NCBI GenBank assembly: GCA_951406725.2
Contig: OX597836.1
Coordinates: 11,594,001-11,658,000, forward strand
Direction of reading: 5' to 3'
Source: Octopus vulgaris
Lineage: Eukaryota
DNA: 64,000 bases
Part shown: positions 17,758 to 18,465 of the stretch, piece after piece
Layout of the letters: every line of letters starts with the position of its first letter
Numbering within the stretch: position 1 is the stretch's first letter
Notes under the pieces: model-generated
What the model was told of the DNA's origin: nothing
What the model saw: only the letters and a program-made list of their open reading frames with translations
Database searches by the model: none
Position numbers and translations under genes: made by a program

Positions 17758-18465
17758 ACCCACAAGGGGATAAACACAGAGGGGACAAATAAGGACAGAC
17801 AGACGGATTAAGTCGATTACATCGACGCCAGTGCGTAACTGGTACTTATTTAATCGACTCCGAAAGGATGAAAGGCAAAGTCGACCTCGGCGGAATTTGA
17901 ACTCAGAACGTAACGGCAGACGAAATACCTATTTCTTTACTACCCACAAGGGGCTAAACACAGAGAGGACAAACAAGGACAGGCAAAGGGATTAAGTTGA
18001 TTAGATCGACCCCAGTGCGTAACTGGTACTTAATTTATCAACCCCGAAAGGATGAAAGGCAAAGTCGACCTCGGCGGAATTCGAACTCAGAACGTAACGG
18101 CAGACGAAATACCCATTTCTTTACTACCCACAAGGGGCTAAGCACAGAGAGGACAAACAAGGACAGACAAAGGGATTAAGTCGATTATATCGACCGCAGT
18201 GCGTAACTGGTACTTAATTTATCGACCCTGAAAGGATGAAAGGCAAAGTCGACCTCGGCGGAATTCGAACTCAGAACGTAACAGCAGACGAAATACCTAT
18301 TTCTTTACTACCCACAAGGGGCTAAACACAGAGAGAGGACAAACAAGGATAGACAAACGGATTAAGTCGATTATATCGACCCCAGTGCGTAACTGGTACT
18401 TATTTAATCGACCCCGAAAGGATGAGAGGCAAAGTTGACCTCGGTGGAATTTGAACTCAGAACGT
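17758..18465 (-). mobile_element. SINE-C head-to-tail array, ~4 x 184 bp
   Basis: Junction cagacGAAATACCtatttc at 17922, 18106 and 18290. Confidence 0.92.

Follow-up and report, generated by a model that had tools for sequence, protein, structure and literature searches.

Several described systems come close to the tandem SINE arrays analysed here, as far as the accessible parts of the cited sources go. For SINEU-3/Tx1-Mar of crocodilians, tandem copies were attributed to sequential insertion (PMC4494074). For the SINE-derived satellites of squamates, unequal recombination was favoured, and insertion at the same locus is mentioned only as more probable (PMC10702118). Annealing of cDNA to a homologous upstream target has been shown for R2 (PMC11331408), and in SART1Bm and R1Bm a few target-like bases at the 3' end of the RNA improve accurate initiation (PMC7265360). 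In octopus, the CORE-SINEs OR1 and OR2 were named as tRNA-derived (PMC4824008, PMC4758252).

The window is the whole stretch of 64,000 nucleotides from Octopus vulgaris (contig OX597836.1, positions 11,594,001 to 11,658,000) and contains several head-to-tail arrays of one tRNA-type SINE, here called A, the monomer of which is 231 nt long (measured on the copy at 4946). The array repeat unit is A positions 48-231, 184 bp, and at the junction, AAAGAAATA joined directly to GGTATTTC, the exact 3' end of A meets its own head. SINE A shows several traits of a tRNA-derived SINE: dispersed copies in high number (47,083 exact genome matches to its head), short target duplications, an empty site in a relative, organism E, and a 3' end in common with a LINE. 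It may resemble the CORE-SINEs OR1 and OR2. A weak local alignment links its head to the window's tRNA-Met; ARAGORN made no tRNA call on the head. As stated in the preliminary description of this DNA, internal units have lost the A box and kept the B box: positions 1-47, with what we presume to be an A-box-like motif, are absent, and the B-box-like GAGTTCAAATT is retained. Three sister families, B, C and D (labels coined here), have head and centre in common with A and differ in their tails. At A positions 43 and 48 (window 4988 and 4993), the variant G43/C48 adds a predicted head-hairpin pair and removes the GG target; C48 is found in 39% of heads in this genome. The arrays of the window and the repeat abutting the focal array are the following.

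18298-18465, minus strand: focal array, unit 1, A positions 66-231, headless, 5' end lost or truncated
18114-18297, minus strand: focal array, unit 2, A positions 48-231, 184 bp
17930-18113, minus strand: focal array, unit 3, A positions 48-231, nearest to unit 2 (7 differences in 153 positions)
17758-17929, minus strand: focal array, unit 4, A positions 48-220, tail cut where another repeat abuts
17336-17757, plus strand: unrelated repeat, presumably of a SINE-like family, whose tail is (GTAAAAGA)n; it meets the focal array tail-to-tail and lies outside the unit
4946-5295, plus strand: single head with A (4946-5176) and a diverged sister-SINE body (5177-5295, 82%)
31700-32135, plus strand: position-15 dimer, period 217, flanked by the duplication GGTATAATATTTGG
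52041-52644, minus strand: head and A trimer, closing with GGTATT(ATT)n
53883-54345, plus strand: array without a head, duplicated in inverted orientation at 56270
56270-56863, minus strand: array without a head, its last unit formed by the body and tail of a sister SINE

The focal junctions lie, on the minus strand, at 18298/18297, 18114/18113 (one substitution) and 17930/17929. Tandem Repeats Finder reports a period of 184 at 17757-18465 (3.8 copies), 52040-52597, 53883-54345 and 56336-56853, and a junction-spanning 27-mer has 29,197 exact matches in the 2.8-Gb genome against none for its reversed control, which puts the fixed junction far above chance and bears out the single junction and 184-bp period first described for the window's arrays. 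Genome-wide, head-to-tail rows with one fixed joint occur at more than 30,000 places. The real number of junctions is probably several times above the exact 27-mer count, since only one of the four site-48 junctions in a fixed-coordinate sample of 150 kb was exact; 6 of the 11 A loci in that sample were arrays. A second fixed junction at A position 15 gives a period of 217 (window 31713). The preliminary description had listed the arrays at 17758, 52041, 53883 and 56270 and the dimer-like copy at 4946 as using the same junction. The junction is real, but 53883 and 56270 represent a single duplicated locus and are therefore not independent, both being carried by an inverted segmental duplication (53353-54345 against 57390-56403, 90% over 996 bp). 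At 4946 the second unit, and at 56270 the last one, turned out to be diverged sister SINEs, not A. Also present in the window are three tandem tRNA-Met(CAT) genes of period 178 (6035-6577, beside the insertion at 6969 described below) and a 100-bp tandem repeat of 2.9 copies with no relation to the SINE (24188-24473).

Pairwise differences among the four focal units amount to 7-14 of 153 positions, and the variants first named as distinguishing them are among these. The array's head, its tail end and any recognisable target duplication are all missing, and because both ends are lost, building in place and insertion as a whole multimer are both possible origins; whole-multimer transposition may well lie behind this array.

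The arrangement was analysed further in a genome sample of 1.43 Mb (201 merged stretches, mostly around pattern matches, with elements near stretch edges dropped), which is enriched for T219 junctions and B-type last units because it was picked largely by junction patterns. It holds 520 elements and 185 arrays, the latter comprising 121 dimers, 39 trimers and 25 arrays of four to seven units. The joints, 289 in total, fall at position 48 in 257 cases and at position 15 in 20, while 7 have a full head and 5 are of other kinds. A sister SINE forms the last unit in 100 of the 185 arrays of this enriched sample; by family, last units are B in 78 (B being enriched), A in 51, C in 13, D in 9 and unclassified in 34. 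As the array script chains units only after an A, polarity was tested genome-wide, where a sister-B tail preceding the junction has three matches, all at one locus. The sole array found with a B tail before position 48 (L161-L163, C24) consists of four B units with a period of about 169. At L016:1224-1744, two facing A copies both have 12-25 nt of junction sequence between their end and the flank.

Three routes to such arrays had been proposed: serial self-insertion, template jumping by reverse transcriptase, and rolling copying of a circular 184-nt RNA as in non-LTR retrozymes. A circle copied in rolling fashion by reverse transcriptase would yield both the fixed junction and the exact 184-bp period. 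However, 148 of the 185 sample arrays begin with a SINE head, which the circle would lack, so that the varied start and stop positions first described hold within the window but not for the sample; moreover, last units come from other families, and the units of dimers are unrelated. The absence of a hammerhead core from the unit was upheld: at E <= 10 over two arrays no Rfam ribozyme was matched, with only (TA)n-stretch matches in 17300-19000 and one chance match in 52040-52660, and the folding of a dimer is not unusual (z -0.29). The ribozyme in each unit that marks retrozymes was not found, although an undescribed fold is conceivable. Circular RNA is not needed to explain the arrays, and copying from a circle is the least credible of the explanations considered, with next to no probability.

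Target choice bears on how the junction arises. All 93 A 3' ends outside junctions are followed by G, A or T and none by C, with GGT in 30. Target duplications of A (37 mapped) measure 8-24 bp with a median of 15, and target sites begin with GGT, TAT, AGA or AAT; in many A copies the head is set off from the left duplication by 1-3 additional bases, often AA. The preferred target GGTATT sits within A's own head, and head positions 48 (GGTATTTC) and 15 (AGAAAC) match the target preference. C occupies position 48 in 18,217 of the 47,083 heads, yet only 324 junctions carry C against 29,197 with G. One insertion into the head of another SINE is preserved intact at window 6969 on the minus strand, where the order is resident head, GGTATTTCGCCCG, A, and again GGTATTTCGCCCG opening the resident body.

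6981-7027 (start approximate), minus strand: retained head of a diverged resident SINE
6968-6980, minus strand: left-hand copy of the 13-bp target duplication, GGTATTTCGCCCG, which bears changes private to the resident
6744-6967, minus strand: SINE A inserted at resident position 47/48
6651-6743, minus strand: resident body, opening with the right copy of the duplication

The upstream resident head is kept in 5 of 135 head-bearing A units that have a following site-48 junction, and one further case (L311) was found among 30 later loci; overall, six loci keep both head and duplication. At C1:31029001+ the duplication agrees with the last and not with the middle unit, which makes the newest unit the 5'-most. 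These loci weigh against template jumping, in which reverse transcriptase would pass between processed RNAs with their cut at 47/48, in the loop of the head hairpin, and build a multimer in one event. Position 47/48 does lie in the loop of the predicted head hairpin, and units within an array can be unrelated, as such jumps would allow; but retained-head loci have target duplications at the junction, the junction base follows the target preference, the GGT preference recurs at non-self DNA targets, B tails hardly ever occur internally, and distal head positions look resident-derived. We consider template jumping very improbable.

Units were also compared within and between arrays. In A-A dimers the mean distance between units is 0.100, against 0.095 between loci. 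Neighbouring units within 3% of each other make up 2 of 31 in dimers, 4 of 47 in trimers and 24 of 71 in arrays of at least four units, against 5 of 5000 between loci. The differences among units had been read as arguing against local slippage, and clustering by locus as the sign of ordinary tandem duplication. The first stands for dimers, the units of which are unrelated, but not for arrays of at least four units, in which near-identical neighbours are common and clustering by locus is therefore partly present. Long arrays also hold hybrid units that include the 5' portion of the unit downstream, as predicted by unequal exchange. Were the arrays purely a satellite derived by local tandem duplication of part of a SINE, both the near-identical neighbours and the hybrid units would be expected; such duplication cannot, however, yield one junction at tens of thousands of loci or place other families as last units, and the dimer distances contradict it as the sole cause. 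It accounts for growth and not for origin, and as a complete explanation it is slightly less probable still than template jumping. Mixed arrays with both junction types, such as L237, need repeated insertion.

A further explanation is that a few dimeric or multimeric masters, formed once through insertion, produced read-through Pol III transcripts that were retrotransposed whole, most arrays being copies of these. A TTTT run is absent from the A majority sequence and from the focal array, in some copies additional junction sequence lies between the end and the flank, and some headless arrays have no upstream resident head, all of which fits such masters. At L164, contigs of organism E (runs X13 and X14, one contig per run) join the flanks of an A+B dimer with nothing between; this is a true insertion younger than the split and is silent on insertion order, the absence of the whole dimer fitting whole-dimer transposition as well as two later insertions. 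Against masters, 35 A haplotypes occur among 41 A+B dimers, four families serve as last unit, and the duplications at retained-head loci are private to each locus; in addition, one of 32 linkage tests reached p<0.05, although these tests have low power and A sites also assort freely. Descent of most arrays from a few masters thus appears unlikely, if clearly less so than the three explanations above, whereas whole-multimer transposition is probably a secondary route that is compatible with a two-step explanation.

Tests of relative age within arrays gave no clear order. Rare substitutions in the 3' against the 5' unit stand at 0.042 and 0.034 in B-ended arrays (n 44, p 0.096) and at 0.048 and 0.031 in C-ended arrays (n 10, p 0.16), with p 0.59 in A-ended arrays. 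First and last units of 50 A-ended arrays diverge by 5.4% and 6.8% (p 0.003), a comparison confounded by subfamily. For window 4650-5322, where a resident-only allele was sought in relatives, no contig spans the site. In organism E the G43/C48 head variant looks nearly absent by summed contig depth, which is not equivalent to copy number.

We consider it quite probable that the arrays were built in two steps, a targeted insertion into self or sister SINEs followed by growth through unequal exchange. SINE A would insert at its preferred site in its own head or in that of a sister SINE; the duplicate head would be lost through head homology, leaving one; and longer arrays would extend by unequal exchange between neighbouring units. 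Of the routes first proposed, serial self-insertion is the one supported, with removal of the spare head and local duplication in long arrays added to it.

How the second head is lost was approached through head sequences. Where a single-head array ends in C or D, 33 of 250 sites at head positions 1-19 depart from the A majority, against 98 of 1687 in A-only elements (p 7e-5), and resident SINEs differ there at 115 of 748; positions 20-47 are A-like (29/405 against 168/2673 in A-only elements, p 0.51). As positions 1-19 are resident-like and positions 20-47 A-like, the pattern suggests a switch from resident to A near head position 20. In 30 new loci this chimeric head was not clearly repeated, T19 occurring in one of three single-head C/D-ended arrays, and the excess was absent from the 8 B-ended arrays of that set (8/138 against 14/200 in A-ended arrays). 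Survival of the target duplication (48-62) in the new unit was rejected, 1 of 20 rare variants being shared in 84 true dimers; an earlier all-pairs profile that hinted at 5' sharing owed its signal to longer arrays. Within the two-step explanation, we lean somewhat towards a single chimeric head left at integration, with the 3' end of the cDNA annealing to the resident head as in the 'anneal' junctions of R2, over later deletion between two heads, which is somewhat less probable.

Subfamilies of A differ in their targets, T219 copies going to site 48 and C219 copies mostly to site 15. Site-48 junctions number 29,197 with T219 tails against 1,888 with C219; site 15 has 2,299 matches, and 90 of the first 100 among the matches listed carry C219. 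Non-self targets start with GG in 27 of 53 T219 copies against 5 of 27 C219 copies (p 0.007), and with A in 5 of 53 against 15 of 27 (p 1.5e-5). One endonuclease should not see this split, which points either to pairing by read-through RNA or to different helpers over time. RNA reading through the junction might pair with the nicked target and so set the site, a possibility to which we give a little under an even chance, the alternative being a change of helper LINE over time. Pairing of this kind has a precedent in SART1Bm and R1Bm (PMC7265360), and A contains no TTTT run. Left and right duplication copies mostly agree at their starts, giving no support either way for RNA-templated bases there.

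Reverse transcriptase may have been supplied by an L1/Tx1-type LINE with the same tail as A. A two-ORF LINE, reached through tail-only matches, aligns at its 3' end with the last ~50 nt of A. Its ORF2 contains Exo_endo_phos, RVT_1 and zf-RVT domains (Pfam), its best PDB match is human L1 ORF2p (E 5e-51), and homologues in fish have ZCCHC3-type RNA-binding domains. With APE endonuclease, reverse transcriptase and zinc knuckle it is of L1/Tx1 type, and presumably Tx1 rather than L1 proper. Its copies are inserted in (TATC)n and have an amino acid identity of 97-98% (134 scored). It is a young and abundant LINE with many open ORF2 copies of 1149 aa (L284:2470-8545, approximate, and L285); two full copies have ORF2 in common but diverge over the initial part of ORF1. 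At site 48 none of the 30 loci checked held a LINE, a SINE lying upstream in all 30. The LINE may be the helper or a relative of the true helper, and maybe only the latter, since it is very young, has other spacing before TAT and is found in (TATC)n, against GGT, TAT, AGA or AAT for SINE A.

More tentatively, SINE A could be a self-homing retroposon that stores its target in read-through RNA, with two parallel loops (T219 at site 48, C219 at site 15) and G43/C48 as an escape allele that keeps the hairpin paired; we hold this possible, at well below even probability. Transcripts of a landed copy would carry junction bases and pair at their 3' end with the same site elsewhere, while the 5' end would anneal to the resident head and the A body would overwrite the resident promoter region. 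If it is true that RNA read-through sets the target, nature would here offer, on the scale of a genome, a non-autonomous element whose choice of target is heritable.

With targeted insertion and later exchange, one rule would explain tens of thousands of tandem SINE arrays, and the arrays would record in what order SINE families inserted. When one SINE settles behind the promoter of another and displaces its body, the two may be seen as competing, parasite against parasite, and in automated annotation such chimeras would push the counts of SINE families too high.

The arrangement was not found described in the literature, though the families or their dimers may be described in Repbase, in Dfam, in preprint supplements or in the 1994 paper on octopus SINEs. 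The comparisons that follow are with the available portions of the sources cited at the outset. SINE A and SINEU-3 are alike as target-preferring SINEs linked, in the case of A presumably, to Tx1-type LINEs. In SINEU-3 the target is Mariner-N4_AMi and the tandem copies are whole with the duplication between them, whereas the target of SINE A is its own head and those of its sisters, and one head remains. In the 'anneal' 5' junctions of R2, the 3' end of the cDNA pairs with homologous upstream target and the shared sequence is not duplicated (PMC11331408); R2, however, is autonomous and targets 28S rDNA, while in SINE A the homology would be with its own head. SART1Bm and R1Bm offer a model for subfamily-specific target choice, drawn from cell assays of LINEs, whereas for SINE A there is a correlation among genomic copies. 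The squamate SINE-derived satellites, like the A arrays, are dispersed tandem arrays of part of a SINE that are more uniform when longer (PMC10702118). The A arrays differ from them in being seeded at a defined target site with duplications and in being short, of 2-7 units in the sample; within-locus homogenisation, a trait of SINE-derived satellites, is seen in part of the long arrays and not in dimers or trimers. OR1 and OR2, like families A-D, are tRNA-derived octopus SINEs, a likeness by description; A-D have head and central region in common, and the available text on OR1 and OR2 (PMC4824008, PMC4758252) describes neither arrays nor self-targeting. Each step has a precedent; what is new is to find them joined, at such scale, in a SINE with its own head as target.
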